From positions 1 through 11,713 of the IMG/VR virus record IMGVR_UViG_3300045988_012850: 11,713 nt of DNA. One strand, given 5' to 3'. This stretch comes from a virus. Below are positions 1 to 11,713 of the stretch, piece by piece; the stretch's first letter is position 1; each line of letters opens with the position of its first letter. Under the pieces are notes generated by a model. It saw nothing but the letters and a program-made list of their open reading frames with translations. It ran no database searches and had not been told where the DNA came from. Both the position numbers and the translations under genes were made by a program.

Positions 1-40
1 TAACCTGTGACTGGAGTTCAGACGTGTGCTCTTCCGATCT
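1..40. other. Illumina TruSeq-type adapter (reverse complement), a technical artefact
   Basis: taacct + gtgactggagttcagacgtgtgctcttccgatct is the exact reverse complement of AGATCGGAAGAGCACACGTCTGAACTCCAGTCAC plus 6 index bases. It mirrors 11674..11713. Confidence 0.95.
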
Positions 41-104
41 AAAGGTACACTAGGCACGCAGATTTAACATTTCCCAACTATCTTTAACAGTTGTTAACAC
101 ACTT

Positions 105-128
105 TGGCACGCTTTTTGTTCTGTGCCA
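105..128. promoter_or_regulatory. Inverted repeat TGGCAC-N12-GTGCCA, a candidate dimeric protein-binding site (origin or regulatory)
   Basis: tggcac (105..110) and gtgcca (123..128) are exact reverse complements. The site sits in repeat unit 1. The same GGCACGC 7-mer also occurs at 53..59, near the genome tip. Confidence 0.5.
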
Positions 129-172
129 CAATTACGATTATTTAACACATTTAACACATCGTTAACACACTT

Positions 173-195
173 TGGCACGCTTTTTGTCTGTGCCA
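173..195. promoter_or_regulatory. Inverted repeat TGGCAC-N11-GTGCCA, second copy
   Basis: tggcac (173..178) and gtgcca (190..195) lie in repeat unit 2. The spacer is one T shorter than in unit 1. Confidence 0.5.
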
Positions 196-257
196 CAATT
201 ACGATTATTTAACATATTTAACACACCGTTAACACTGTTAAACTTTCATAAAAATAA

Positions 258-336
258 TGTTTCACGTGGAACGGTGGTAACGGTTGTTTCACGTGGAACA
301 AATGGCGAAAGATGAAAATTGTCTCACGTGGAACAA
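258..336. promoter_or_regulatory. Cluster of three CACGTG-core operator-like boxes (TYTCACGTGGAAC)
   Basis: ttcacgtggaac occurs at 261..272 and 288..299, and ctcacgtggaac at 323..334. Each is a near-palindrome (GTTYCACGTGRAAC). A related perfect palindrome lies at 5179..5190. Confidence 0.6.
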
Positions 337-389
337 ACAAGTGTTAACAACAGTTAATTTATTTCTTTAAGACTTTTTAACGGAAATAA

Positions 390-421
390 TTTGGTGGTTT
401 CGCAAAAACGTTGTATCTTTG
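390..421 (+). promoter_or_regulatory. Bacteroidota-type promoter (-33 TTTG / -7 TAnnTTTG) firing inward from the left ITR
   Basis: TTTG at 390..393, a 20-nt spacer, then TATCTTTG at 414..421. The extended core ATTTGGT ... TATCTTTGCA is identical to the internal promoter at 5208..5239. The ITR ends 2 nt after the -7 box. Confidence 0.65.
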
Positions 422-470
422 CACCGTGTTTAAGAAACATATAAGTTTAACAAATTAAATTAGGTAAATT

Positions 471-638
471 ATGAATGAGAATTTTAATGAAACTGTTTTC
501 AACTGTATTACTAGTGTTAATGCTCTTATGACTTCAAACGAAGTTGCTAAAGACGATAAGGCGGTTATTAAGTTGAACCGCTTTAAGAAGTGGTTGAACG
601 AATTTGCGGTTGCAAACGGTGTGAACGAAGTTAAGTAA
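471..638 (+). CDS. Hypothetical small protein (55 aa), first gene of the left arm
   Basis: ATG 471 to TAA 636..638 (MNENFNETVF...ANGVNEVK). It is below the ORF-track cutoff and about 45 nt downstream of the ITR promoter, on the same strand as the following genes. No motif recognised. Confidence 0.45.
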   Translation: MNENFNETVFNCITSVNALMTSNEVAKDDKAVIKLNRFKKWLNEFAVANGVNEVK

Positions 639-688
639 TAACAGGCGTTCAATGACAACAGAAGTTTAACGTTTAAAAGATTTGAGTT

Positions 689-1045
689 ATGCCAAAAGGT
701 TTTAGTTTTGCTGGTACTTTTAATAGAACTAGTTTCGGGATTGATACAACAGATTTCCCGTTTGTTAAGTTGGTAGATATTTTCAAAGATGAGGGCGGTG
801 ATGTGGTGCACCCTATCAACGGTTTGTATGTGCATAAATCACAATTGGGGGATTCACCCGTTATCATTGATGCCGAAAACAAACGTCTTGTTAACTTACC
901 ACAGTTTACAGGTGACACGATTCGTGAAATTTTGGCGAATAGTGATGCTGTCGATGCCATCAAAGCGAACAAAGTTGGTTACACGATTTATGAATATGAA
1001 TCGCACGCCAAAAAGTGTTACGGTATTACCTTTGTAGATAAGTAG
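689..1045 (+). CDS. Hypothetical early protein, 118 aa (candidate abundant replication-accessory or DNA-binding protein; function not established)
   Basis: Clean ORF in the gene-dense + strand series, followed by an intrinsic terminator. It sits upstream of the terminal-protein and polymerase genes, analogous to the phi29 p5/p6 genes. No diagnostic motif seen. Confidence 0.7.
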   Translation: MPKGFSFAGTFNRTSFGIDTTDFPFVKLVDIFKDEGGDVVHPINGLYVHKSQLGDSPVIIDAENKRLVNLPQFTGDTIREILANSDAVDAIKANKVGYTIYEYESHAKKCYGITFVDK

Positions 1046-1072
1046 TTGTAAGGTAAAAGGGTTGATAACGCC

Positions 1073-1117
1073 ACGGGGGTAAACAGTAATTTATTTATTG
1101 TTACCCCCGTTTTGTTT
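1073..1117 (+). terminator. Rho-independent terminator or attenuator
   Basis: acgggggtaa (1073..1082) pairs with ttacccccgt (1101..1110), followed by tttgttt. No new promoter motif appears before the next gene at 1139. Confidence 0.7.
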
Positions 1118-1138
1118 CATTTTAAATTTTAGCAAGTT

Positions 1139-1801
1139 ATGGCAAAAAGAAATCCAATAGGGTTTAGCAAAAGAGCTTTTTCATTTACGGGTAAAATTCA
1201 CGTAAAAAGTGAGATTTTAACCGCTTTGGAATCTGACCCCGTGTTAAGAAAAGAAATTGCACGAACTTTTCAACAGGCAAACCGACGCATACAAAACGTT
1301 GAAAATTCGGGCATTGTTTCGCCTGCGGTTGTTGCCCTTAACAAAGGTGACGTAAAAGGGTTTGCAAAGTTTTCAATGAAACACGATTGGAACGATTTAA
1401 AAATTGAATATGCCAAAGCGGTAGCGTTTTTGCAACAACCTACATCAACTGCAACAGGTACAAAAGAATATGCGCAACACCTAAAGCGTACGTACAAACT
1501 GAATGATGATGAATTTAGTTTGATGCAAAATAAGTTAATGGGTAAGATTGCAAGTGTTTCCGATGAAAAGTTTTTGGAACAGTATTTAATGCAATACAAA
1601 GACTTTACAGGTGAACTTGAGCAAGAAAGCAAAGACGTTTCAGACCAAATCGAAGATGATGCTATAAAAATAGCAGATTCGTTGCAAGATGATTTGAACG
1701 AACAGGCTAAAGCCATCGAAGAAGAACAGGAACGAATGAGCGGTTTATTAGATGATACACTCGCAAAGATTTTAAAAAGTTTCAAAAAATTCGGTTTGTA
1801 A
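1139..1801 (+). CDS. Putative terminal protein (protein primer), 220 aa
   Basis: It lies immediately upstream of the protein-primed polymerase, with a TAATG stop/start overlap (1799..1803); this is the canonical TP-pol order of phi29 and PRD1. The N-terminus is basic (MAKRNPIGFSKRAF). The C-terminal half is strongly acidic and helical (DQIEDDAIKIADSLQDDLNEQAKAIEEEQE), like the DNA-mimicking priming domain of phi29 TP. The genome has ITRs. Confidence 0.55.
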   Translation: MAKRNPIGFSKRAFSFTGKIHVKSEILTALESDPVLRKEIARTFQQANRRIQNVENSGIVSPAVVALNKGDVKGFAKFSMKHDWNDLKIEYAKAVAFLQQPTSTATGTKEYAQHLKRTYKLNDDEFSLMQNKLMGKIASVSDEKFLEQYLMQYKDFTGELEQESKDVSDQIEDDAIKIADSLQDDLNEQAKAIEEEQERMSGLLDDTLAKILKSFKKFGL

Positions 1802-4011
1802 TGAAAAAGATATCCTTTGAACTTCACAACGAAATTTACACGCCTAAAGATATTTCAAAGGTTTTATCTTTGGCGGTGAATGAAAAGAACTTCACAGGAA
1901 ACAATAAGGGCGAAAAGTTCTTAAATGTGCCTGTTTCATTTGATATTGAAACTACTTCATTTTATCGTGACGAAGACGGGGAAACATATAGTTATGACCG
2001 TTACATAAAATTAGGTGGCAAAGATACCAAAATGGAAAAATGTAGTTTAATGTATGTTTGGCAATTTGGAATAAATGGTTTTTGCATTATTGGTAGAACG
2101 TGGGAAGAATTTTTGCAAATGTTAGATTACATCGTTGATATATTGGGTTTAAACCAAGAAAGGCGCATTATTATATACGTTCACAATTTGGCATACGAGT
2201 TCCAATTTTTACGAAAAATGCTAAAATGGGAAAAAGTTTTCTCTATTGATTTGCGCAAACCGATTTACGGAATAACAAAAAGCGGTTTAGAGTTCCGTTG
2301 CTCTTATTTGCTTTCGGGTTATTCGTTGGCGAAATTGGGTGAACAACTTCACAAATATAAATGTGAAAAGTTGGTAGGTGATTTAGACTATAGTCTATTA
2401 CGTCACAGCAAAACCCCGTTAACGCCAAAAGAAATTGGCTATTGTTTGAACGATATAAAAGTAGTTATGTGTTACATACAGGAACTTTTAGAACGTTACA
2501 AAGGAATAACAAAGCTACCAATAACAAAAACTGGTTTCGTGCGTAAATATTGCCGTTCTGTATGCTTTAAGACAACAGACCCTGAAACAGGAAAAACGAT
2601 TCCAAACTTTAAATATTTGGATAAAATCCACAATTTAAATATTACAGGTATGGAAGAATTTTTAATGTTACAAAGGGCATTTTCGGGCGGTTTCACGCAC
2701 GCCAACGCAAAATATACCGATGAGGTGATAGAAAACGTTGATAGCTACGATTTTACTAGCAGTTACCCTTATGTGATGGTTTCCGAAAAATTCCCGATGA
2801 GCACGGGCGTCGTTGTTCCCGTTAAATCGATGAAACAATTTGAGTTTATGACTAGTAAATTTTGTTGTGTTTTTGATATTGAGATAACAAACATATTTGC
2901 AAAATCAGAAAACGAAAACCCAATATCTGTTAGTAAGTGTTTCGTAAAAGAAAACGTTTCCGAGAATAACGGGCGTTTAGTTTGTGCAACAAAGATTTGT
3001 ATGACGATTACCGAAATAGATTTCAAAGTTTTTTCACAGTTTTACACGTGGGAACAAATCAGAATCGGGCGAATGATATGCTACAGAAAAGAATATTTGC
3101 CTACAGAGTTTGTGGAATCTATTTTGCACCTTTACGAAATGAAGACGAAACTAAAAGGCGTTAATGGCAAAGAAGTAGAGTATCTGAATAGCAAAGAAAT
3201 GCTAAACAGTTGTTACGGTATGTGTGTTACAAACCCGTTGCGTGATGAAATTTTGTGTGACGGTGAATCGTGGGATATTGAACACCTTACAGGGGAAAAG
3301 CAATTGGAAACGCTGCAAAAATACAATGACAGCAAAAACCGTTTCTTGTTTTACCCTTGGGGTATTTACGTTACCGCTTATGCAAGACGTAATCTGTTTA
3401 CGGGTATTGCCGAATGTGGTGACGATTATATATATAGTGATACCGATAGCGTTAAAATTATGAACGGTGATGCTCACAAAGAATATTTTGCCGCTTACAA
3501 TATGTTATCACAACAAAAATTACGTGCAGCCTGTAAGCACCACAAAATACCATTTGAAAAGGTTGAACCCGTCACGGTAAAGGGAATCGCCAAACCGTTG
3601 GGTGTTTGGGATTACGAGGGGCGATACACCCGTTTCAAAACTTTGGGTGCAAAACGCTATATGGTGGAAGAAGAAAACGCCCTGACAGTAAACGGCAAAG
3701 ATTACAATTACAGTATTACCGTTTCGGGTGTTAACAAGAAATCTGCTATCCCTTATATGCTAGAAACGTTTGGGGAAAACGGAATCTTTGACGCTTTCAC
3801 GAATTATCTAGATATTCCACCGAGTGCAACAGGCAAGAATATACACACGTATATTGATTACGAACAAACAGGAACTATAAAAGATTACACGGGCACGGTT
3901 TCAAGTTACGACACGTTAACGGGTGTTCATCTAGAGCCAACAGGGTACACGTTAAGTCTTTCAGTTCTTTATATAAATTATTTAATGGGAATTCGACTTA
4001 AAAAAGAATAG
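1801..4011 (+). CDS. Protein-primed family-B DNA polymerase (phi29-like pPolB), 736 aa
   Basis: All signature motifs are present in order. These are ExoI FDIETTS, ExoII YVHNLAYEFQF, ExoIII YCLNDIKV, motif A YDFTSSYPYVM (Dx2SLYP), motif B KEMLNSCYG (Kx3NSxYG), motif C YSDTDS (3433..3450) and KxY (GAKRY). Confidence 0.96.
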   Translation: MKKISFELHNEIYTPKDISKVLSLAVNEKNFTGNNKGEKFLNVPVSFDIETTSFYRDEDGETYSYDRYIKLGGKDTKMEKCSLMYVWQFGINGFCIIGRTWEEFLQMLDYIVDILGLNQERRIIIYVHNLAYEFQFLRKMLKWEKVFSIDLRKPIYGITKSGLEFRCSYLLSGYSLAKLGEQLHKYKCEKLVGDLDYSLLRHSKTPLTPKEIGYCLNDIKVVMCYIQELLERYKGITKLPITKTGFVRKYCRSVCFKTTDPETGKTIPNFKYLDKIHNLNITGMEEFLMLQRAFSGGFTHANAKYTDEVIENVDSYDFTSSYPYVMVSEKFPMSTGVVVPVKSMKQFEFMTSKFCCVFDIEITNIFAKSENENPISVSKCFVKENVSENNGRLVCATKICMTITEIDFKVFSQFYTWEQIRIGRMICYRKEYLPTEFVESILHLYEMKTKLKGVNGKEVEYLNSKEMLNSCYGMCVTNPLRDEILCDGESWDIEHLTGEKQLETLQKYNDSKNRFLFYPWGIYVTAYARRNLFTGIAECGDDYIYSDTDSVKIMNGDAHKEYFAAYNMLSQQKLRAACKHHKIPFEKVEPVTVKGIAKPLGVWDYEGRYTRFKTLGAKRYMVEEENALTVNGKDYNYSITVSGVNKKSAIPYMLETFGENGIFDAFTNYLDIPPSATGKNIHTYIDYEQTGTIKDYTGTVSSYDTLTGVHLEPTGYTLSLSVLYINYLMGIRLKKE

Positions 4012-4013
4012 TT

Positions 4014-5153
4014 ATGAAACAGAAAAAAGAAAAGGTTGAAACACTGAAATTTTACACGTTGAATCGCATTTTATCAAAAAATGCCGATTACAATGTGATT
4101 TTCGGTGAACGTTCCAACGGTAAAACCTATGCAACGTTGTTGTATGGCATCAAAGAATATTTGCGCACGGGTAAGCAAATGGCATATATTCGTAGATGGC
4201 GTGAAGATTTAAGGGGCAAACGTGCCGAAAGTTTATTCAGTAATCACGTTGCAAACGGTGTGGTACAAGAATTAACAGGCGGTAAATTTAACGAAGTGTT
4301 TTATGTTTCGGGAAAATGGTATCTTTCGTCTTATGATGCCGAAACAAAGAAACGCGTACCCGATAACACCCCGTTTTGTTTCGGTTTCTGTTTATCAGAA
4401 CAGGAACACGAAAAATCTAGCAGTTACCCGAATATAACTACTATCGTTTTCGATGAGTTCCTGACAAGACGTTATTATTTGCCAGACGAATTTATGCTAT
4501 ATATGAACCTGTTAAGCACGATTATTCGACAGCGAAACGACGTTAAAGTTTTTATGCTTGGTAACACCGTGAATCAGTTTTGCCCGTATTTCTCTGAAAT
4601 GGGTTTAAAACAAGTTCGCACAATGGAACAGGGCACAATAGATATTTATAAATTCGGTGAGCATGGAGCAACGGTGGCGGTTGAATATTGCAGCACGATT
4701 GTTAAACATAAAGCTAGTAACAAATACTTTTGTTTTGACAATGAAAATTTGCAGATGATTACGGGCGGTAAATGGGAACTTGCGGCTTATCCTCATTTGC
4801 CTGTAAAATACAAACCGAATGACGTTTTGTTTGTCTTCTATATTCAGTTTAACGAAATGACCTTGCAGGGAAACGTTATTCAAGTGGAAGACAAAGAAAC
4901 AGGGGTTAACAACTTTATTTACATACATAATAAAACAACCCCGATTAAAGACGTTGACAACAGTTTGATATATTCTTTGCAAATGAACGGCAAACCCAAC
5001 TACAAACGAAAGTTGTTGAGTACTGCGACTTATGTAGAATCACAGATAACTAAGTTTTTCGCCACCGATAAGGTATTTTATCAGAATAACGAAATAGGTG
5101 AAATTGTGCGTAATTACTTGATGGCAAGTGCAAGAAGTAACATTATTACTTAA
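4014..5153 (+). CDS. DNA packaging (encapsidation) ATPase, phi29 gp16-like, 379 aa
   Basis: Walker A GERSNGKT (4104..4127) and Walker B IVFDEF (D147/E148 at 4452..4457). The segment EKSSSYPNITTIVFDEFLTRRYYLPDEFMLYMNLLSTIIRQRNDVKVFMLGN is collinear with phi29 gp16 SEKSNAYPNVSTIVFDEFIRE...LLNLMDTVFRNRERVRCICLSN, as I remember it. Confidence 0.9.
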   Translation: MKQKKEKVETLKFYTLNRILSKNADYNVIFGERSNGKTYATLLYGIKEYLRTGKQMAYIRRWREDLRGKRAESLFSNHVANGVVQELTGGKFNEVFYVSGKWYLSSYDAETKKRVPDNTPFCFGFCLSEQEHEKSSSYPNITTIVFDEFLTRRYYLPDEFMLYMNLLSTIIRQRNDVKVFMLGNTVNQFCPYFSEMGLKQVRTMEQGTIDIYKFGEHGATVAVEYCSTIVKHKASNKYFCFDNENLQMITGGKWELAAYPHLPVKYKPNDVLFVFYIQFNEMTLQGNVIQVEDKETGVNNFIYIHNKTTPIKDVDNSLIYSLQMNGKPNYKRKLLSTATYVESQITKFFATDKVFYQNNEIGEIVRNYLMASARSNIIT

Positions 5154-5161
5154 TATCTGTT

Positions 5162-5191
5162 AACGGTGGTTAAAAATATTTCACGTGAAAC
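5162..5191. promoter_or_regulatory. Operator module AACGGTGGT-N9-TTTCACGTGAAAC upstream of the internal promoter
   Basis: The 30-nt stretch aacggtggttaaaaatatttcacgtgaaac aligns without gaps to ITR 270..299 (aacggtggtaacggttgtttcacgtggaac; 22/30 identical in two blocks). It contains the perfect 12-bp palindrome tttcacgtgaaa (5179..5190). Confidence 0.6.
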
Positions 5192-5207
5192 AATTTTCCC
5201 CGTTTTA

Positions 5208-5239
5208 TTTGGTAATATCAAATAATATTCTTATCTTTG
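5208..5239 (+). promoter_or_regulatory. Bacteroidota-type promoter for the structural (late) gene block
   Basis: TTTG at 5208..5211, a 20-nt spacer, then TATCTTTG at 5232..5239. This is the same extended core as both ITR promoters. It lies in the 118-nt gap between the ATPase stop and the ATG at 5272. Confidence 0.65.
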
Positions 5240-5271
5240 CATCATTAAATAACAAAGTTAAAATTTACTAT

Positions 5272-5466
5272 ATGGACGTAAACGCAATAGTATCTCTAGT
5301 TAGTAACGTGGGTTTTCCTGTAGCGGTTTGTGTCGCCCTTTTCTTCTATATGGAGAAACAGAATGAACGTCACCAACAGGAAACCGACAAGTTAAACGAA
5401 ACCGTGCAAAGTAACACTAAGGTATTAACGGAACTTTGCACCTTAATTAAAACGATTGTTAAATAA
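5272..5466 (+). CDS. Small single-pass membrane protein, YvrJ-like (holin candidate), 64 aa
   Basis: I use the internal ATG at 5272, because the track start at 5185 lies upstream of the promoter. MDVNAIVSLVSNVGFPVAVCVALFFYMEK has one hydrophobic helix with the N-x-GFP motif typical of YvrJ-family proteins, followed by a charged helical tail. The stop overlaps the portal ATG (TAATG). Confidence 0.6.
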   Translation: MDVNAIVSLVSNVGFPVAVCVALFFYMEKQNERHQQETDKLNETVQSNTKVLTELCTLIKTIVK

Positions 5467-6503
5467 TGGAGAAAGAAAATTTATATAACAGGTATCAAAC
5501 AGAAGTTAAAAACAAAGATTCTGCATTATTCACGTTTATGCAACGAGTTCTTTGTATGACTTCAAAGATGTTTGAATATACGGGCACACCCGAAACGATT
5601 CCGCCCGTTGAACTTGAAAAGATTCTGCAAACATCGGGTAACGTTGGAATAGCAGAAGTTAACGGTAAACTGTATGCGTTACAGGGTACACGTGGTGGTG
5701 AATGTGATGCCTATTATCGCGGCAAAGATTACACGGTAGCAAACCCGTGGTTAAATTTGAGCAAAACGTTCAAAATTGATTCCGATATTGTCGTTATCAA
5801 CAACACACCGTTTGCGGATTCGCTTTTGCCGTTAATTGGTAAATATGGTGTTCTTTACACCGATGCAACAATAACGCTCAATTTGGCTAGTATTTTAACT
5901 AGAATCACGATGATTATTTCTGCTAGTGACGATAAGACCAAACAAAGTGCTGAATCGTTTTTGCAGAAAATTTTAAACGGTGATTTTTCCGTTATCGGTG
6001 AAAATGCCTTTTTCAAAGGTGTTAATATGCAAACACCACTAGCACAGGGAAACCAACAAATCGGGCAATTAATTGAACTTTTGCAGTATTATAAGGCATC
6101 AATGTTTAACGATTTAGGTTTGAACGCAAACTATAATATGAAGCGTGAACGTTTGAACACGCAAGAAGTTTCGATGAATATAGATGCTTTAATGCCGTTT
6201 GTTGATTCAATGTTAACGGAACGTGTTGAGGGTGTTAAACGTGTTAACGAAATGTTTGGCACGGATATTACGGTAACGTTGGGGTCTAGTTGGAAAATTG
6301 AGCACGAAAACTATTTATCGTTGCTTAAAGCATCGGAAGACGGACACGACCACACCGACACGGAAGACGTTGACCCTGTAACGGAAAACGAACCAGAAGA
6401 AACGCAAGAAACAGAAGAAACGGAAACAGAAACAGAAGAAACGCAAGAAACAGAAGAAACAGAAACTGAAACAGAAGAAAACAAAGAAGACGATGAAAAT
6501 TAA
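5466..6503 (+). CDS. Portal / upper collar connector protein, phi29 gp10-like, 345 aa
   Basis: It is collinear with phi29 gp10 as I remember it. [27 protein letters not shown] matches [42 protein letters not shown] matches [29 protein letters not shown] matches INELYGLNVKVKF. The acidic C-terminal tail is expanded here. Confidence 0.9.
   Translation: [345 protein letters not shown]
6396..6482 (+). repeat. 39-bp in-frame tandem repeat (about 2.2 copies) encoding [13 protein letters not shown] at the portal C-terminus
   Basis: Units at 6396..6434 and 6435..6473 differ at 2 positions, and a partial third copy follows. Codon phase was verified ((6396-5466) is divisible by 3). Confidence 0.9.
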
Positions 6504-7062
6504 CGAACTTTTCACGGGTGAAAATGGTTTGTTTGAAAAAATCTTTGCGCCCCTGTTTCCTGTTTTGTACAAATCAATATTCGGGGAAGATGACCCGAAA
6601 TTAATAGATATTGATTTTCGTTTCAAATATGGAAACAAAATTCTTGTTGATGCCGTAACAAACGAAACCGCAAACGATATTGTTAAAAGCATTATCACGG
6701 TGAAGTTTGACGAATGGCAAAAACAAATTCAAGTGTTTAATAACGAATATGACGTGTTAAATCCGGTAACGTCAAAGACAACGGAAACAACAAGTAACAC
6801 CGTTGACGAAACAGGCAATAATAACACGGTCGATTCAAGTACAACGTTTAATAATGGAGATTTCGGAAATGATGCAAAACAACAGCGAGAATCCACAGGA
6901 AACCGACAAGAAACAGGCACGAAAACAAGTGTTAAGAATGGTTTGCCGTCTAGTGTTCCTGTTAGTGAAATTATTCAAAAAGAAATGAGTTTGCGCAAAA
7001 CCAATTTCAAAACGCAAGTTATTGCAGAACTTGCACATGGGTTAACAATAGATATTTATTAA
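6493..7062 (+). CDS. Virion-associated protein of unknown role, 189 aa (scaffold or lower-collar/adaptor candidate)
   Basis: It overlaps the portal stop by 11 nt and sits between the portal and capsid genes. It has an N-terminal globular part, a T/N/S-rich linker (TSKTTETTSNTVDETGNNNTVDSSTT) and a C-terminal helix. Function is assigned from position only. Confidence 0.7.
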   Translation: MKINELFTGENGLFEKIFAPLFPVLYKSIFGEDDPKLIDIDFRFKYGNKILVDAVTNETANDIVKSIITVKFDEWQKQIQVFNNEYDVLNPVTSKTTETTSNTVDETGNNNTVDSSTTFNNGDFGNDAKQQRESTGNRQETGTKTSVKNGLPSSVPVSEIIQKEMSLRKTNFKTQVIAELAHGLTIDIY

Positions 7063-7081
7063 TACTTAATTTTTATAAAAA

Positions 7082-8266
7082 ATGGAAGTAAAACAGATTT
7101 ATAGTTTAATTAACACCGTATCGAGTGAAGTATTGGGTGAAACCGATATTGTAAGTGAGGATTTAACGGGTATCGTTGATTTGGGTAACGAGATTTTTAA
7201 TCAGAATGCCGTTGATAATTACGTGAAGTCACTTGTGAATCACATCGGCAAAGTCGTTTTCGTAAACCGCCCTTATAGCGGCAAAGTTCCTAGCGTTTTG
7301 ATGGATGCTTGGGAATTTGGTAGCGTTTTGGAAAAAATATCAGCTGACGTTCCAAAAGCAGAAGAGAATGACACATGGAACTTACAGGACGGTATAGAGT
7401 ACAAACAGGACGTATTTCACAAACCGACCGTTTCGGCTAAGTTCTTCAACTCAAAGGTAACTTTTGAGGTACCCGTATCTATCACAGAAAGACAGGTAAA
7501 AGAATCTTTCAGCAGTGCAGAACAACTCAACGGCTTTTTGTCGATGATTTATTCAGCAGTTGAGAAGTCAATGACCATCAAGACAGATGCACTAGTTATG
7601 CGCACAATTAACAATATGATTGCGGAAACTTTGAACGCTGATAAAACCGCTTTCGGGTTTGTTTCATCAACAAATGAAACTGTCGATTACTCTACTGCGT
7701 CAACAGTTCGTTGTGTAAACCTGTTGAAACTTTACAACGATAAGACGGGCGCACAGTTGGCGGCAAACGTTGCCGTAACAACACCCGATTTTATCCGTTT
7801 TGCCGCTTACATTATGGGTTTGTATGCTGACCGTTTGCAGACCATTTCAACTTTGTTCAACGTTGGCGGTAAGGAACGTTTCACACCGAAAGATGTGCTG
7901 CATACCGTTTTGTTGAGTGACTTTGCAGCCGCTGCAAAAACCTACCTGTATGCCGATACGTTCCATAACGAGAATGTTTTGTTGCCACAGGCTGAAACCG
8001 TTGCAAGTTGGCAAGCAACAGGCAAAGATTACGCTTTCGCCAACGTTTCAAAGGTTGACGTTAAGAGTGCAAGCGGTGCAGACGTTTCTATCAGTGGCGT
8101 TTTGGGTGTGATGTTTGACCGCGACTCTTTGGGTGTTACAAATTTGGATAAGCGAGTAACAACCAACTACAACGCCAAAGCAGAATTTTTCAACAATTAC
8201 TTCAAATTCGATGCAGGCTACTTCAATGACACAAACGAAAACTTTGTTGTGTTCTTTGTTGCCTAA
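7082..8266 (+). CDS. Major capsid protein (putative), 394 aa
   Basis: It is the only ORF of suitable size in the head-gene position, after the portal and scaffold-like genes. The strongest hairpin terminator in the window follows it. The N-terminal pattern (LINTVSSEVLGE..IVSEDLTGIVDLG...DNYVKSLVNHIGKVV) resembles picovirus-type capsid proteins from memory. No search was run. Confidence 0.7.
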   Translation: MEVKQIYSLINTVSSEVLGETDIVSEDLTGIVDLGNEIFNQNAVDNYVKSLVNHIGKVVFVNRPYSGKVPSVLMDAWEFGSVLEKISADVPKAEENDTWNLQDGIEYKQDVFHKPTVSAKFFNSKVTFEVPVSITERQVKESFSSAEQLNGFLSMIYSAVEKSMTIKTDALVMRTINNMIAETLNADKTAFGFVSSTNETVDYSTASTVRCVNLLKLYNDKTGAQLAANVAVTTPDFIRFAAYIMGLYADRLQTISTLFNVGGKERFTPKDVLHTVLLSDFAAAAKTYLYADTFHNENVLLPQAETVASWQATGKDYAFANVSKVDVKSASGADVSISGVLGVMFDRDSLGVTNLDKRVTTNYNAKAEFFNNYFKFDAGYFNDTNENFVVFFVA

Positions 8267-8284
8267 TTTGATTGTTTAACTGTT

Positions 8285-8331
8285 GGGGTGTTCCTGTAGT
8301 TGATAGCACAGGAATGCCCCTTTTAATTTTT
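8285..8331 (+). terminator. Rho-independent terminator after the capsid gene
   Basis: ggggtgttcctgt (8285..8297) pairs with acaggaatgcccc (8308..8320) as a 13-bp stem with two G-U pairs, followed by ttttaattttt. Confidence 0.75.
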
Positions 8332-8335
8332 CGGT

Positions 8336-8779
8336 ATGATTAAAATCAAAACATTTGTTTATAACGGAAAACCAAACGAAGTGAATAAGACTTTACAGGC
8401 AAATGAAGAGTACACGGGCGTATTGAATGCAACGTTTAACGTTTTAACGCCTGTTGTGCGTTTCAGAACTCGCACGCCTGTTACGTTTAATTACGTTTAT
8501 ATTGAAAGTTTGAACCGTTATTATTTCGTTTCAGAAAAGCAACAAGACGGTGATATTTGCACAGTTCGTTTGCGTGTTGACGTTCTGTTTACTTATAAGG
8601 ATATTATCTTAAATAGTAAGGGAACGTTGACAAAGGGCGAAAATGTTAACGAATATCTTTCAAACCGTTCAAACGTTTTCGATTCACGCCCTAATATTAG
8701 GAAACTAGATTTTCCGAATAAAGAGTTGTTGAATGAAACAGGTAGTATTATTATGGTAACAATTAAGGGAAATGTTTAA
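8336..8779 (+). CDS. Tail protein resembling the N-terminal domain of phi29 tail-knob gp9, 147 aa
   Basis: NYVYIESLNRYYFVSEKQQDGDICTVRLRVDVLFTY resembles the gp9 segment SYIMFQN..KWFYAFVTELEF...VHFEIDVLQTW (from memory). The ORF ends 2 nt before the next tail ORF. Confidence 0.55.
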   Translation: MIKIKTFVYNGKPNEVNKTLQANEEYTGVLNATFNVLTPVVRFRTRTPVTFNYVYIESLNRYYFVSEKQQDGDICTVRLRVDVLFTYKDIILNSKGTLTKGENVNEYLSNRSNVFDSRPNIRKLDFPNKELLNETGSIIMVTIKGNV

Positions 8780-8781
8780 TT

Positions 8782-10344
8782 ATGAAAGTAACTTATAATA
8801 TTTCAGAACAAACAACCGTTATCGGTGACAAACCCGAAACGATAGAAAAAGGCGAAACTTTAAATTTGACCTTACAGGCAAACACGGGATATAAGTTTGA
8901 ACCCGTGCCGTTGGTTGCTATCAGAACAACAAGTTTCCAATATATCAACACAAACTTTGTTTTGGATTCCGCAGGGAAAAAAGCAACGATTTCTTATGAG
9001 ATTCCATCGAATGCTTCAACATGTACCGTTAAAGCGTTTACGGTTGAAAGCGCAGACCCTGTGCCCGAAACCGTCACAGTTACAAATACGTTGTCAAATT
9101 GTACTAGTTCGTTAAACAATGGCACGGTAAACAAAGGGGAAGAGATAACAATAACTTTAACCGCAAACACGGGGTTTTCTTTTTCGGGTGTTGCCCCAAC
9201 TATTGACTACGAAACAACGGGCACACCGTCACCAATTTTTAATGTATCTAGCGACAAATTAACGGCATCGGTGACAATTACCCCAAACGACAATTTTACA
9301 ATTAATGCCAACGCCTACGAAATTAAAACGTTTGTAAACGTTACATATAATTTAAAAAATTGTGTTTCAAGTTTGACGGGTAAAACTGTAGAAAAGGGCA
9401 AAGAAATTACGGTAACGGTAACGGCAAACGAAAACGCTATATTTGACGGAATCACACCAAACGTTTACTATCTAGAGCACGGAATACCAAAAACGGTAAA
9501 CTTCACGCTAGATACCGACAAGAAAACGGGAACGCTAACATTTACGCCAAATTTCAACTTTACTTTGAATGCCGATGCAAATATAGTTGAACCTGTTGCC
9601 AAAAATTACGGTGCAATTAATGTTTATAAAGTAAGTTTGGAAAATCTAGATGCTTTCAGTAAGCAACGTTTTTCTAAAGTGGTTAATGAAACAACAGGTG
9701 CAACACAAACCGTTAATTTGGGCGTATATGTGAACCGTATTAAGCGTATTTTTACAAACGTTCCTGTAAGTGGTACGGATAATTTGAAATGCGGTAACTA
9801 CGATACAAAAATTGTTGTAGAATCGCCAAAAACCGATATTATAACAATAGATTTCGGTAACATTACCCTTACAGGGTTAAACGGTAACAATGCCGATTTC
9901 GATGCAAAGATTTCGGTTTTTATCCCGTGCCGTGGGTTTGTTTCTGTTGATAGTTCGTATATTGGTAAGATGATTAATTTGTCTTTGAAAGTTAACATCG
10001 TTACGGGTGATGCTGTGGCGTTCCTATCGTGTGACAATGTATCGTTTCAGTTTGAAAGTTTTTCTTTGTCACGTGATGTTATTTATCGAACAGGGGATAA
10101 CGATTTAAATATTGTTGGCGGTGACGAATGGAACGAACAAATTTTGTATGGTTTAGAACCTTACGTTTTAATAACGGAAAATAAAACCGTTGACGTTGTA
10201 ATTAACAACACGCAAAAAGATGTAACGTTGAAAGACGTTACAGGGTTTGCACAGTTTGAAAACGTAAATTTGAACACTGCAAATTTGTTGGTAGATGAAT
10301 ATAACGAAATTGTTTCACAACTTGAAACAGGCGTTTATCTATAA
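8782..10344 (+). CDS. Tail / receptor-binding protein, 520 aa: three tandem ~90-aa beta-rich repeats plus a gp9-like C-terminal domain
   Basis: The repeats span aa 1-96, 97-183 and 184-271 (nt 8782..9594). They share v.kGe.it.tltAntGf.F, resembling InlB B-repeat / Listeria-Bacteroides repeat domains. The C-terminal segment KISVFIPCRGFVSVDSSYIGKMINLSLKVNIVTG resembles the central gp9 segment [26 protein letters not shown]. Confidence 0.7.
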   Translation: MKVTYNISEQTTVIGDKPETIEKGETLNLTLQANTGYKFEPVPLVAIRTTSFQYINTNFVLDSAGKKATISYEIPSNASTCTVKAFTVESADPVPETVTVTNTLSNCTSSLNNGTVNKGEEITITLTANTGFSFSGVAPTIDYETTGTPSPIFNVSSDKLTASVTITPNDNFTINANAYEIKTFVNVTYNLKNCVSSLTGKTVEKGKEITVTVTANENAIFDGITPNVYYLEHGIPKTVNFTLDTDKKTGTLTFTPNFNFTLNADANIVEPVAKNYGAINVYKVSLENLDAFSKQRFSKVVNETTGATQTVNLGVYVNRIKRIFTNVPVSGTDNLKCGNYDTKIVVESPKTDIITIDFGNITLTGLNGNNADFDAKISVFIPCRGFVSVDSSYIGKMINLSLKVNIVTGDAVAFLSCDNVSFQFESFSLSRDVIYRTGDNDLNIVGGDEWNEQILYGLEPYVLITENKTVDVVINNTQKDVTLKDVTGFAQFENVNLNTANLLVDEYNEIVSQLETGVYL

Positions 10345-10389
10345 AAGAAAACAGGCGGTAAAATGTTACCGCCTGTTTTATTATTTTTT
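10343..10389. terminator. Bidirectional intrinsic terminator at the convergent junction
   Basis: aaaacaggcggtaa (10348..10361) pairs with ttaccgcctgtttt (10366..10379) around a 4-nt loop. It is flanked by an A-run upstream and a T-run downstream. It sits exactly between the stop codons at 10344 (+) and 10381 (-). Confidence 0.8.
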
Positions 10390-10629
10390 GCCGTAAAACT
10401 CATTTAACAACCCTTTGTTATTGATAAACGTTAACAATGCGTTTCGTTCTGCTAGATACGTTTGCGCTTTTACTTCTAAAGCATCAATAAAAGTTAAGTC
10501 TGCCTGTAAGGTATCGGCGCACGAAGTCAACATCAAACCTTTTTCGCTATCCGAATCGTTGGCGACAGTTTCCAAACTTTTCTTTGTTAACGAAATGGAA
10601 TCTTTTAACAGTTGGAAATGTTCTTTCAT
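10381..10629 (-). CDS. Hypothetical helical protein, 82 aa, translationally coupled to the endolysin
   Basis: It has an ATGA start/stop overlap with the upstream endolysin gene (10626..10629). The sequence looks helical. No TM segment, signal peptide or known motif was seen. Confidence 0.65.
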   Translation of the reverse strand: MKEHFQLLKDSISLTKKSLETVANDSDSEKGLMLTSCADTLQADLTFIDALEVKAQTYLAERNALLTFINNKGLLNEFYGKK

Positions 10630-11051
10630 TTCTTTTCTAGATTCATTATAATTTGATTACGGGGTTTGCCGTTACGTGGGCAAACTGAAACGTGAAACCA
10701 AAACAAGTTAGGAAACCCTTTGCGGTGTTCTTTAATAAGTTGGTCAAAACCGCCTGTTTCTCTTAACACCGATTCAAGTTTTGCCATATCAGTACAAACC
10801 AAATCAGCCGCCAAACCTTTTTGGTGTTGACTGTTAACAACACCACCAACGGCTTTATTTAAGGCGGTGCAACGATAGCCACTACTAACAAGAATCGGTT
10901 TACCTAACTTTTCACGGATAACATCTAAATAATAGGCTAACTTATTCAAGTTATCTACTACCTCAAATGTAGGGGTGTTATCAATCCCTAAACGTTTTGC
11001 TGTTGCTGAGTTCAAAAACTCAGACAAGCTAAAATACTTAATCTTTTTCAT
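10626..11051 (-). CDS. Endolysin, peptidase M15 family (zinc D-Ala-D-Ala / L-Ala-D-Glu type peptidase), 141 aa
   Basis: It carries the Peptidase_M15_3-type signature FSLSEF...GKPILVSSGYRC..LN..VGG..NSQHQKGLAADL...WFHVSV, with an H..D..H zinc triad. There is no signal peptide. Confidence 0.9.
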   Translation of the reverse strand: MKKIKYFSLSEFLNSATAKRLGIDNTPTFEVVDNLNKLAYYLDVIREKLGKPILVSSGYRCTALNKAVGGVVNSQHQKGLAADLVCTDMAKLESVLRETGGFDQLIKEHRKGFPNLFWFHVSVCPRNGKPRNQIIMNLEKK

Positions 11052-11058
11052 ATCTATT

Positions 11059-11253
11059 TTATGTTGGAGAAACTACAAACCATTTACGACTGACTTCGTG
11101 TGTCGGGAATCTGCCTTTAACAGTTATAGAACAATCCCCCGAAAGAAAATCTATTTTGTTGTTAAAGAACTCGCTTACTTTGTCAGAACGTACCATATAA
11201 ACGGTAACGTTATTAACCTGTTTCAAAATGATTTTAAAATAACTATATTCCAT
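11059..11253 (-). CDS. Hypothetical small protein, 64 aa, first gene of the right arm
   Basis: I start at the internal ATG (11251..11253, MEYSYFKIIL...). The track start at 11295 lies inside the -7 promoter box of the right ITR. No motif recognised. Confidence 0.5.
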   Translation of the reverse strand: MEYSYFKIILKQVNNVTVYMVRSDKVSEFFNNKIDFLSGDCSITVKGRFPTHEVSRKWFVVSPT

Positions 11254-11292
11254 ATTCTTATTATTTAACTGTTTAACTTTTAATTTATGCTG

Positions 11293-11324
11293 CAAAGATA
11301 CAACGTTTTTGCGAAACCACCAAA
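11293..11324 (-). promoter_or_regulatory. Bacteroidota-type promoter firing inward from the right ITR
   Basis: Mirror image of 390..421. On the minus strand TTTG is at 11324..11321 and TATCTTTG at 11300..11293. Confidence 0.65.
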
Positions 11325-11377
11325 TTATTTCCGTTAAAAAGTCTTAAAGAAATAAATTAACTGTTGTTAACACTTGT

Positions 11378-11456
11378 TTGTTCCACGTGAGACAATTTTC
11401 ATCTTTCGCCATTTGTTCCACGTGAAACAACCGTTACCACCGTTCCACGTGAAACA
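11378..11456. promoter_or_regulatory. Three CACGTG-core boxes, right ITR copy
   Basis: Mirror of 258..336, e.g. gttccacgtgag at 11380..11391. Confidence 0.6.
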
Positions 11457-11477
11457 TTATTTTTATGAAAGTTTAAC

Positions 11478-11621
11478 AGTGTTAACGGTGTGTTAAATAT
11501 GTTAAATAATCGTAATTGTGGCACAGACAAAAAGCGTGCCAAAGTGTGTTAACGATGTGTTAAATGTGTTAAATAATCGTAATTGTGGCACAGAACAAAA
11601 AGCGTGCCAAAGTGTGTTAAC
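11478..11621. repeat. Tandem 68/67-nt repeat, right ITR copy
   Basis: Mirror of 93..236. It contains the two TGGCAC/GTGCCA palindromes and the phased TTAAC arrays. Confidence 0.92.
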
Positions 11622-11673
11622 AACTGTTAAAGATAGTTGGGAAATGTTAAATCTGCGTGCCTAGTGTACCTTT

Positions 11674-11713
11674 AGATCGGAAGAGCACACGTCTGAACTC
11701 CAGTCACAGGTTA
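11674..11713. other. Illumina TruSeq-type adapter read-through, a technical artefact
   Basis: agatcggaagagcacacgtctgaactccagtcac followed by aggtta (index bases). Confidence 0.95.

Follow-up and report, generated by a model that had tools for sequence, protein, structure and literature searches.

Tandem parS sites in the inverted terminal repeat of a phi29-like phage genome and a proposed composite control region at its ends

The canonical chromosomal parS consensus, TGTTNCACGTGAAACA, is the binding site of ParB/Spo0J (PMC7022226, PMC10197239), and both ParABS systems and consensus parS sites have been reported in gut Bacteroidales and in most phyla (PMC10197239, PMC7022226). On lytic phages such sites are documented for phi29 and Nf, in connection with spore entrapment, which is the sole case found in our literature search; as Meijer et al. 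2005 are cited in PMC2731898, phi29 has five parS sites that are bound by the host Spo0J and trap the genome in spores. Lytic deferment has been described for Spo0A boxes on phi29 and for CtrA boxes on alphaproteobacterial phages (PMC9437464). Here, we analysed a stretch of 11,713 nucleotides of viral DNA (IMG/VR record IMGVR_UViG_3300045988_012850; hereafter the window, meaning the whole stretch), which contains a complete phi29-like, Astrithrvirus-related phage genome of 11,633 bp at positions 41-11673, and we focused on its inverted terminal repeat (ITR). We found that the three CACGTG boxes of the ITR have the sequence of parS sites, and that the ITR as a whole is probably a composite control region of this protein-primed podophage, with four functions arranged in fixed order from the end inward.

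Window positions 1-423 match 11291-11713 at 100% in inverted orientation, adapters included; because 1-40 and 11674-11713 are adapter sequence, the true ITR is 41-423. The landmarks listed in the original prediction, an earlier reading of the same DNA, were recovered, namely a 383-bp ITR whose identity remains at 100% once the adapter flanks are excluded, a GGCACGC heptamer in the tip (53-59), TTAAC at 84 and 94 with at least 10 copies in total, a 68/67-nt tandem repeat, two TGGCAC/GTGCCA palindromes (105-128 and 173-195), CACGTG boxes at 261, 288 and 323, and two further TTAA motifs 10 bp apart, which turn out to be two pairs (344/354 and 367/377). The adapter joins directly onto AAAGGTACAC at both window ends, many relatives begin with AAAGGTACAC, and several have a TruSeq or other adapter ahead of the tip. 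The physical end of the phage is well defined, because the adapter junctions place AAAGG there in the window and in its relatives; exactly three A's precede GGTACAC in 20 of 24 adapter-marked ends. The 5'-AAAGG end, comparable to the phi29 start (AAAGTAAGCC, or AAAGTA), offers the terminal reiteration that permits sliding-back, and positions 41-57 would be the initiation site of terminal-protein-primed replication, with sliding-back on a 3'-TTT template. Together with a protein-primed family-B polymerase (PolB; PF03175, E = 2.5e-15; phrog_1907, 1.6e-73), the terminal AAA and the perfect ITRs identify the replicon as protein-primed at the level of sequence, as had been proposed. Adapters were also assembled onto the starts of L003, L012, L033, L037, L050 (Nextera), L067, L069 and L078 (handles beginning with L denote our comparison contigs), a contamination that nevertheless pins the DNA ends. 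Contigs that start at the tip can show 4-6 terminal A's instead of three (left ends of L004, L041, L046, L056, L064, L073 and L077), which could be an artefact of assembly or A-tailing or could be real heterogeneity through sliding-back.

We next compared the ITR across close relatives, of which at least 102 are present in IMG/VR (PolB 89-97% identical) and 80 were fetched. The left ends of 36 genomes were aligned from the tip to the first start codon, and column identity was set against the 4-fold degenerate sites of PolB in the same genomes, a neutral baseline of 0.48 that is near saturation and, coming from 27 sites, rough. Conservation in relatives, the check that the original prediction had named, is evident, with most motifs 0.92-0.99 identical, in contrast to spacers (0.45-0.69 mean pairwise identity) that drift much like the degenerate sites; values for single motifs are given in Table 1. 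Even L138, with a PolB only 68% identical, keeps TTTAACGTTTCCCAAC, TTTAAC, two boxes and TATCTTTGCA, and has three copies of TGGCACGGTTTTTGYT, each exactly 21 nt after TTTAAC. The alignment thus shows a clear phylogenetic footprint of purifying selection, and by this conservation criterion the ITR motifs are functional. Among the 32 genomes in which both tips are present, the ITR shows no mismatch until a sharp boundary, which ranges from 162 to 383 bp and mostly lies at ~190-200 bp, just past the second parS; beyond it both ends carry diverged yet homologous promoter regions, and the window ITR is the longest of all. The sharp boundary and the zero mismatches fit recurrent homogenisation of the ends, in line with the end repair invoked earlier for the ITR identity, except that the extent is variable and the usual boundary lies well short of 383 bp.

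The three CACGTG boxes are, judged by their sequence, canonical chromosomal parS sites. Read on the opposite strand, the ITR box TGTTTCACGTGGAACA becomes TGTTCCACGTGAAACA, and seven window sites are within one mismatch of the consensus, two of them perfect (285-300 and 11414-11429) and five with a single mismatch (258, 320, 5177, 11379 and 11441). When up to two mismatches are allowed, 14 strand-hits are obtained over both strands versus 0.14 expected, and the box pattern itself has 12 strand-hits in the genome versus 0.22 expected. The perfect palindrome TGTTTCACGTGAAACA matched more than 120 contigs in an IMG/VR scan, many of them from unrelated phages, and it is this breadth that leads us to recognise the box as parS, a conclusion independent of the host because the consensus is pan-bacterial. 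Across 74 relatives we counted a mean of 4.0 terminal and 0.97 internal parS sites (4.97 per genome), with exactly one internal site in 62 of the 74 and with 1-3 sites per end, spaced 26-29 or 35-39 bp apart. The resulting density in the window phage is ~0.6 per kb, versus 0.2 per kb in phi29. A Pfam scan of 14 phage open reading frames (ORFs) found no ParB domain, and the phage probably recruits the ParB of its host through these sites.

The same 16-mer is found across many phi29-like lineages whose small early proteins have no counterpart in the window and whose expression signals differ; 19 of 126 viral contigs with a perfect parS encode a gp16-type ATPase, marking them as phi29-like. Outside the clade of the window the distribution is uneven; allowing at most one mismatch, we counted four sites in phi29, where our genome scan returned four copies of the identical 16-mer TGTTCCACGTGAAACA, two each in Clostridium HM2, the fecal contig MT836125 and L189, and one, with one mismatch, in Amedibacillus AD70P2. 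L189 (PolB 45% identical) stands at the same distance from the window as do the cultured Astrithrviruses, and its signals are of the Shine-Dalgarno and sigma-70 type; its 150-bp perfect ITR is unrelated and carries iterons of its own (TTTCATGAAAATTATTTTACTCGT twice and GTGATCGTTT repeats), with a perfect parS at 132-147, at the inner edge, mirrored on the right. As a separate observation, L110, L150, L112, L162, L102 and L108 each carry 3-5 parS sites, perfect or nearly so, in the space of a few kb and have no tblastn match to the proteins of the window phage; their GC content is 0.50-0.54 in L110, L112, L150 and L162 and 0.41-0.42 in L102 and L108, and L102 matches the phi29 gp16 ATPase.

At the inner end of the ITR we observe a predicted early promoter. 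The complete promoter that had been claimed for this position exists at 390-421, though of a different kind, TTTG-N20-TATCTTTG, and a sigma-70 consensus scan found no good promoter at the inner ITR end. The arrangement occurs three times with identical geometry, at 390-421, 5208-5239 and 11293-11324 (minus strand), with -33 and -7 boxes that are invariant across relatives. In Bacteroidota, the sigma-ABfr promoter has TTTG near -33 and TAnnTTTG centred at -7, ~19-21 nt apart (PMC7366714). From the ITR copy, transcription is predicted to start at ~424-425, coinciding with the ITR boundary at 423, and because the ITR is duplicated, both genome ends would fire early transcription and both carry parS.

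The fourth parS lies 5 kb inside the genome, at the junction between the early and late operons. In 81 of 81 genomes the ATPase stop is accompanied by the same order of elements, two TTAA pairs, a GC-rich lower stem, parS as the upper stem, the complementary lower stem and a T-run, after which come TTTG-N20-TATCTTTGCA and ~30 nt to the holin start codon. The lower stem covaries, being AACGGGGG/CCCCCGTT in 24 genomes and AACAGGGG/CCCCTGTT in 20, with G.U intermediates in 5; because of this covariation we read the hairpin as selected at the level of RNA and as the intrinsic terminator that ends the left operon. A parS directly behind the packaging-ATPase gene, 1-2 nt after its stop, was also seen in distant phi29-like phages, at 17243-17258 in phi29 (L210), ~5952 in L136 and ~9389 in L154.

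The host bears on how these signals are read. Shine-Dalgarno sequences precede 0 of the 14 window genes and are present in proteobacterial and Firmicute-type cousins; several early genes share RGTT-ATG or ATT-ATG just ahead of the start codon. The missing Shine-Dalgarno and the TTTG/TAnnTTTG promoters argue against a sporulating Firmicute host, and the nearest cellular homologue of the endolysin (54% identity) is found in a rumen Bacteroidales metagenome-assembled genome (MAG). Bacteroidota appear to us the better guess for the host, held with some reserve.

Taken together, we propose a model in four parts; identities, conservation, covariation and locations were computed, and all protein binding and all functions are inferred. 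In the first part, 41-57 and the invariant block at 63-78 would form the origin, where a complex of terminal protein and PolB starts and slides back on the 3'-TTT template. Second, 83-257 would be a platform of sequence-specific sites, consisting of TTAAC pairs 9-11 bp apart and of one to three TTTAAC-N14-TGGCACGSTTTTTGYT units. Its binders may be early proteins of the phage or a regulator of the host, and sigma-54 RNA polymerase is a possible one for the TGGCACG element. Third, the three parS sites at 258-335 would load host ParB, a CTP-dependent clamp, onto the phage DNA. ParB is known for partition and positioning, for condensation and for damping nearby promoters, and its loading might act here as a carrier-state or lytic-deferment device, as with Spo0J on phi29. 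Fourth, 338-423 would serve as an inward early promoter starting at the ITR edge. The module of TTAA pairs, parS and promoter recurs once internally; there parS forms the tip of the early-operon terminator and stands 17 bp ahead of the late promoter, a position from which ParB could affect the early-to-late switch.

Several observations weigh against this model. The step from parS to ParB recruitment is drawn from sequence identity and the phi29 precedent. GA-1, Cp-1, 44AHJD, Astrid, Phanie and DU_PP_III have no parS sites within one mismatch, and since these cultured cousins have none, parS is not needed for this replication type. Internally, L138 keeps the terminator and the promoter and has no parS, the terminator hairpin is weaker in the window (-8.1 kcal/mol) than in relatives (mean -18.9), and the conservation of the internal parS may come in part from its place in the terminator stem. 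The TGGCACG elements of the window are likewise weaker than those of relatives, and Pfam and PHROG searches with the small early ORFs, together with a fold search for ORF689, identified no DNA-binding early protein. Finally, in the endolysin scan of GTDB genomes the whole phage contig came up in two genomes, both of them MAGs of Gastranaerophilales (Melainabacteria), which is at odds with a Bacteroidota host as read from the promoters and the missing Shine-Dalgarno sequences. The contigs in question, L085 (CAAGHI010000088.1) and L086 (QHMG01000022.1), of 11.4 and 11.8 kb, come from two independent MAGs, and this binning is either mis-binned contamination in GTDB or a hint at the true host.

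Within the platform, the repeated unit has the form TTTAAC-N14-TGGCACGSTTTTTGYT, and in 100 units TGGCAC follows TTAAC at a constant distance of 21 or 11 nt. In the window the inverted repeats are TGGCAC 105-110/GTGCCA 123-128 (N12) and TGGCAC 173-178/GTGCCA 190-195 (N11). Two units occur in the window only, among 98 ends; L020 shows a duplication of its own, and L138 contains three units. The GGCACGC heptamer of the tip is found again in the core of both TGGCACGC units (106-112 and 174-180), and the tips of relatives keep at least GCAC. The left arm of most relatives, TGGCACGCTTTTTGCT, matches the sigma-54 consensus TGGCACG-N4-TTGCW, with its GG-N10-GC core, perfectly. A perfect match to the form with 12 specified bases, TGGCACGNNNNTTGCW, is present in 36 of 80 relatives, where it occupies one constant ITR position and is found nowhere else in the genome; counted by unique units, 29 of 49 are perfect, with an invariant GG and with three copies in L138. 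Sigma-54 promoters of the TGGCACG form are reported to be in use in Bacteroidia (PMC12316311). The unit could be an inward host sigma-54 (RpoN) promoter, dependent on an activator and sensing the state of the host, that opens a further way into early transcription, which would be compatible with the four-part model; we regard this as a serious though minority possibility. The -12 C is T in both window copies, which carry TTGT where the consensus has TTGC, and in about one third of relatives, and a conserved N4 spacer in a tandemly reiterated unit is more like a protein-binding iteron. Moreover, neither a site for an enhancer-binding protein nor an upstream activator site was identified, and the element has only ~60 bp of DNA ahead of it. 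On sequence grounds, the readings as sigma-54 promoter, protein-binding iteron and stem-loop cannot be separated.

We then examined the TTAAC motifs, which start on the plus strand at 64, 84, 94, 142, 151, 162, 209, 218, 229, 344 and 377. These 11 copies compare with 1.5 expected from the rest of the genome, a ~7-fold enrichment (Poisson, P = 5e-7), and the copy number of the array ranges from 1 to 5 among relatives. TTAA-N5-7-TTAA pairs, which are same-orientation direct repeats at 9-11 bp, occur 19 times versus 6.2 expected, and 18 of the 19 are located in the two ITRs or at the internal junction, together ~8% of the genome; since pairs accompany every parS/promoter module, they are not specific to the origin. 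The exact form TTAA-N7-TTAAC is present twice per ITR (151-165 and 218-232), most pairs being N5 or N6. As an aside, the TTAAC array is greatly lengthened at the left end of L063, where the contig opens with repeats of TTAACACGATTTAACACTA; the array can evidently amplify. Direct repeats of this spacing are as expected for winged-helix response regulators, and the TTAAC(A) pairs may be sites of a host master regulator, in the manner of the Spo0A boxes on phi29 or of CtrA boxes (TTAA-N7-TTAA), which with parS would implement deferred lysis. The placement of the pairs beside parS and promoters at all three regulatory hubs, the precedents in PMC2731898 and PMC9437464, and the failure to find a phage DNA-binding protein speak for such a regulator. 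We know of no regulator with a TTAAC-pair motif in Bacteroidota or Melainabacteria, and a small phage protein (ORF471, ORF689 or ORF11253c) is equally possible as the binder, which leaves the host regulator a tentative idea, slightly behind the sigma-54 promoter in our estimation. CtrA in particular was rejected on host grounds, being alphaproteobacterial and at odds with the expression signals, and most pairs are N5 or N6.

The original prediction had explained the whole of 60-340 as a single origin complex, in which a phage protein is wrapped on phased motifs in the style of phi29 p6 or of the adenovirus NFI/Oct-1 sites, so as to activate replication from the ends. The ordered and selected character of the ITR, the enrichment and conservation of its motifs and an AA/TT periodicity at 10-11 bp (P = 0.02 and 0.002) agree with this, as does the invariant block at genome positions 23-38, roughly where the NFI site lies in adenovirus. 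The helical spacing holds locally, with 60% of successive spacings at 9-12 or 19-22 bp versus 19% under random placement (P = 0.002; 0.014 with the duplication collapsed), but phase coherence at 10.5 bp is not seen globally (vector strength 0.33, not significant). The boxes are not origin elements, because they are parS and a fourth lies 5 kb inside, beside the late promoter; the TTAA pairs are found at the internal junction too, the tandem duplication is particular to the window and the right arm of the palindrome is loosely kept. Neither comparison survived inspection, as the repeats are sequence-specific TTAAC motifs at 9-12 and 20-21 bp with no p6 homologue found, and the palindrome reads TTGGCAC-N12/11-GTGCCAC with no TTGGC-N5-GCCAA of the NFI type. 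Cousins, furthermore, replicate from ITRs of 83-228 bp that bear no relation to this one. In the phage genome we detected no homologue of p6, p5 or p4, and the small early ORFs have no Pfam or PHROG match, so that these searches yielded no p6-like histone-like protein. The AlphaFold model of ORF689 is mediocre (pLDDT 65), shows no p6-like or DNA-binding fold and returned nothing with E < 0.3 in a Foldseek search of the PDB. We therefore consider a single origin complex unlikely. ORF689 (window 689-1045) encodes a conserved 118-aa early protein whose homologue search returned close relatives only; the single hint is a weak match of its profile to the S1/OB domain of archaeal Rpo7 (E = 0.015), and it may be the single-stranded DNA-binding protein of the replicon. 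Readings of the ITR motifs as DnaA box, CRP, Rex, LexA (Cheo box), cre or IHF sites were poor matches by eye to the respective consensus sequences and were rejected.

A further explanation takes TGGCAC...GTGCCA as a stem-loop in displaced single-stranded DNA or in RNA, or else takes TTGGCA-17-TGcCACAAT as an ordinary promoter in a host of the sigma-70 type. Of 49 unique units, 41 (84%) retain at least 5 of the 6 right-arm bases, versus 2.6% in the background, the tolerance of spacers from N10 to N13 suits a stem-loop better than a rigid dimer site, and the A-to-G changes in the right arm keep a T.G/U.G pair. The single-stranded hairpin is weak (6 bp, 12-nt loop, -5.1 kcal/mol, z = -2.2), however, the right-arm columns reach an identity of only 0.68, and the arm is missing from all three L138 units, while the left arm of the palindrome is invariant. 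The fold z-score of the ITR is modest (-2.5) and is accounted for by the repeated palindromes pairing with each other; in Rfam neither ITR had a match at E up to 1, including phi29 pRNA or any other known structured RNA. As to the promoter variant, the sigma-70 scan lists TTGGCA-17/16-CACAAT with an extended TG and the two MAGs that hold the phage are Melainabacteria, against which stand the other three promoters of the genome, none of the sigma-70 type. Both forms of this explanation strike us as doubtful.

More improbable still is that the CACGTG boxes are operators of a dimeric phage regulator, or RNA hairpins bound by a phage protein, and govern early and late transcription, with the parS match a coincidence or a mimicry without ParB. 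The boxes do lie upstream of all three promoters, the internal one being centred ~60 bp before the predicted late start, the internal box varies only in its central CACGTG, as a dimer site or hairpin loop would, and G.U-compatible changes occur. What speaks against it is the 16/16 match to the pan-bacterial parS, the same 16-mer as in the Spo0J-bound sites of phi29, and its recurrence in phi29-like lineages that differ in early proteins and expression signals; in addition, the ITR boxes stand 99-161 bp ahead of the start, where an operator does not belong, and they do not fold alone (z near 0), for which reason self-folding ITR hairpins were rejected. A reading as a NifA-type upstream activator site (TGT-N10-ACA) was dropped together with the operator because the 16-mer is parS. 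That the repeats are functionless, neutral products of replication slippage in an AT-rich terminal region is hardly credible, as, despite the 1-5 array copies and a 67-bp unit doubled only in the window and L020, motif columns stand at 0.92-0.99 versus ~0.5 for spacers and synonymous sites and the motifs are kept at 68% PolB identity.

Table 1. Features of the window, with strand and mean pairwise identity across 36 genomes.
Feature	Position	Strand	Identity	Remarks
Illumina TruSeq adapter read-through, not phage DNA	1..40	.		...GTGACTGGAGTTCAGACGTGTGCTCTTCCGATCT abuts AAAGG; marks physical left end
Left inverted terminal repeat	41..423	+		383 bp, 100% complementary to 11291-11673
Candidate terminal origin core AAAGGTACACTAGGCAC	41..57	+	0.94 (tip 44-57)	neutral 0.48
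Near-invariant block TTTAACATTTCCCAAC	63..78	+	0.99	candidate auxiliary origin or protein-binding element; TTTAACGTTTCCCAAC in L138
TTAAC pair 84 + 94	83..99	+	TTTAAC (83-88) 0.98; TTAACACAC 0.92	ahead of first TGGCAC unit
Tandem duplication, 68/67 nt	93..235	+		unit TTAACACAC-TTTGGCACGCTTTTTGT..GTGCCA..TTAAC array; TRF period 67, 2.1 copies, 96% matches
Sigma-54 -24/-12-like element TGGCACGCTTTTTGTT	105..120	+	block 0.94; TTTGGCACGCTTTTTGTT 0.94	left arm and spacer of inverted repeat; one mismatch to TGGCACG-N4-TTGCW
GTGCCA, right arm of inverted repeat 1	123..128	+	0.68 (column)	second copy 190-195
TTAAC array 1	142..166	+		starts 142, 151, 162; 9- and 11-bp steps
Second sigma-54-like copy TGGCACGCTTTTTGTC	173..188	+		two mismatches
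TTAAC array 2	209..241	+		motif positions; starts 209, 218, 229, and TTAA at 238
parS-1 CGTTCCACGTGAAACA	258..273	-	0.95	1 mismatch to TGTTNCACGTGAAACA
parS-2 TGTTCCACGTGAAACA	285..300	-	0.95	perfect consensus; same as phi29 parS 16-mer
parS-3 TGTTCCACGTGAGACA	320..335	-	0.81	1 mismatch; in some relatives only
Conserved promoter-upstream block	338..389	+	0.88	TTAA pairs 344-357 and 367-380
Predicted early promoter, Bacteroidota sigma-ABfr type	390..421	+	0.99 each box; spacer 0.62	TTTG (-33), N20, TATCTTTG (-7)
Two overlapping TTAA-N6-TTAA pairs	5150..5173	+		span ATPase stop codon; kept in 81 genomes
Hairpin then T-run, predicted intrinsic terminator of left (early) operon	5162..5204	+		lower stem covaries
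Internal parS TATTTCACGTGAAACA	5177..5192	+		terminator apex; 1 mismatch; perfect in most relatives; 24 nt after ATPase stop
Predicted late promoter TTTG-N20-TATCTTTG	5208..5239	+		ITR-promoter architecture; holin (5272-5466), connector and major capsid protein downstream
Right inverted terminal repeat, mirror of left	11291..11673	-		parS 11379-11394, 11414-11429, 11441-11456; promoter 11293-11324, minus strand
Illumina TruSeq adapter, right end	11674..11713	.		...GTGACTGGAGTTCAGACGTGTGCTCTTCCGATCT abutting tip, as at left end

Beyond PolB, the products of the genome include a gp16-type packaging ATPase, a phi29-type connector, a major capsid protein (Phi29_MCP), a holin and an M15 endolysin. 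The ORF at 1139-1801 (220 aa), directly upstream of PolB as in phi29 and Astrid, is the putative terminal-protein gene and had no family match in Pfam or PHROG. The nearest cultured relatives are ~11.5-kb phi29-like phages of Gram-negatives, Salmonella Astrid/astrithr, Acinetobacter Phanie and Pectobacterium DU_PP_III, with PolB ~46% identical and the same gene order; a whole-genome megablast against GenBank phages gave no match, and the exact ORF689 protein was found on gut-metagenome contigs. We also observe a strong bidirectional terminator with a 14-bp stem at 10348-10379, which stands, like TD1 in phi29, between the late operon, read rightward, and the right-end operon, read leftward. In the right-end operon (10381-11253, minus strand) the endolysin (M15 peptidase, 10626-11051) and two small ORFs are read from the right-ITR promoter, and because this promoter drives it, the endolysin would be controlled by the same type of promoter, with the same parS cluster upstream, as are the replication genes at the opposite end.

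The dense, tandem ITR parS sites in a clade that is abundant in gut metagenomes and whose expression signals do not suit a spore former, together with their recurrence elsewhere, suggest that ParB hijacking is more general, with persistence, positioning or silencing as possible outcomes, and this bears on the long-term coexistence of 'virulent' phages with gut bacteria. More speculatively, and on balance we doubt the full picture, parS-mediated ParB recruitment could be ancient, widespread in phi29-like phages and independent of sporulation, with the sites shifted into the ITRs in this clade; the present phage, apparently virulent, protein-primed and probably of Bacteroidota, would then be coated, held silent and partitioned like a linear mini-chromosome (carrier state) by ParB clamps between its terminal proteins, and released via elements of the same ITR that sense the state of the host, the sigma-54-type TGGCACG unit and the TTAAC sites. 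The analysis also gives an inventory of the origin region in the smallest tailed phages, comprising core origin, auxiliary motifs, partition sites and promoter, with ends pinned by adapters.

Compared with known systems, the ends resemble phi29-family origins in being those of a linear genome with terminal AAAG..., with PolB right after the putative terminal-protein gene and with conserved ends, and they differ in an ITR of 383 bp versus 6 bp, in the lack of p6, p5 and p4 homologues and in sequence-specific repeats at 9-11 bp, the phi29 p6 complex having a structural periodicity of 24 bp. Phages of the Astrithrvirus type (Astrid/astrithr, Phanie and DU_PP_III) share the size and gene order, and their ITRs likewise end in inward early promoters, whereas these ITRs are 83-228 bp, unrelated in sequence and without TTAAC arrays, the TGGCACG unit or parS, and the phages use sigma-70 promoters and Shine-Dalgarno sequences. 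Streptococcus phage Cp-1 also has a long ITR (236 bp), with annotated promoter elements within it or at its edge, but it is without parS and differs in its other motifs and in its host. The likeness to the adenovirus ITR is one of concept only, a terminal core origin followed by host-protein sites within the ITR of a protein-primed replicon; there is no NFI-type site here, and the proposed host-factor site is the target of a partition protein instead of a replication-stimulating transcription factor. As in lytic-deferment systems, short host-type motifs cluster in terminal repeats and promoter regions, some pairs being exactly TTAA-N7-TTAAC, although CtrA is not expected in the likely host of this phage. 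With chromosomal parS near oriC the sites share the consensus and the clustering of several copies within ~80 bp beside a replication origin, and they differ in lying on an 11.6-kb linear viral genome with terminal proteins, with ParB and ParA not encoded by the element. The closest counterpart is the parS of phi29 and Nf, the same 16-mer on a small protein-primed podovirus, with no ParB domain detected in the window ORFs; phi29 even has a parS at 17243, one nt past the stop of gene 16 and by a terminator, where the window has one 24 nt past the ATPase stop and inside the terminator. The phi29 sites, however, are scattered in the right half of the genome, partly within genes and with none in the 6-bp ITR, whereas here 2-3 lie in tandem within each ITR upstream of the early promoters, and the documented role in phi29 is spore entrapment, while the expression signals of the window argue against a sporulating Firmicute host. 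Overall, this is an element of a known kind, since phi29 has parS, and what is new is the tandem parS embedded in an ITR, a host that is likely Gram-negative and does not sporulate, and the repeated occurrence in phi29-like lineages known only from uncultured sources.

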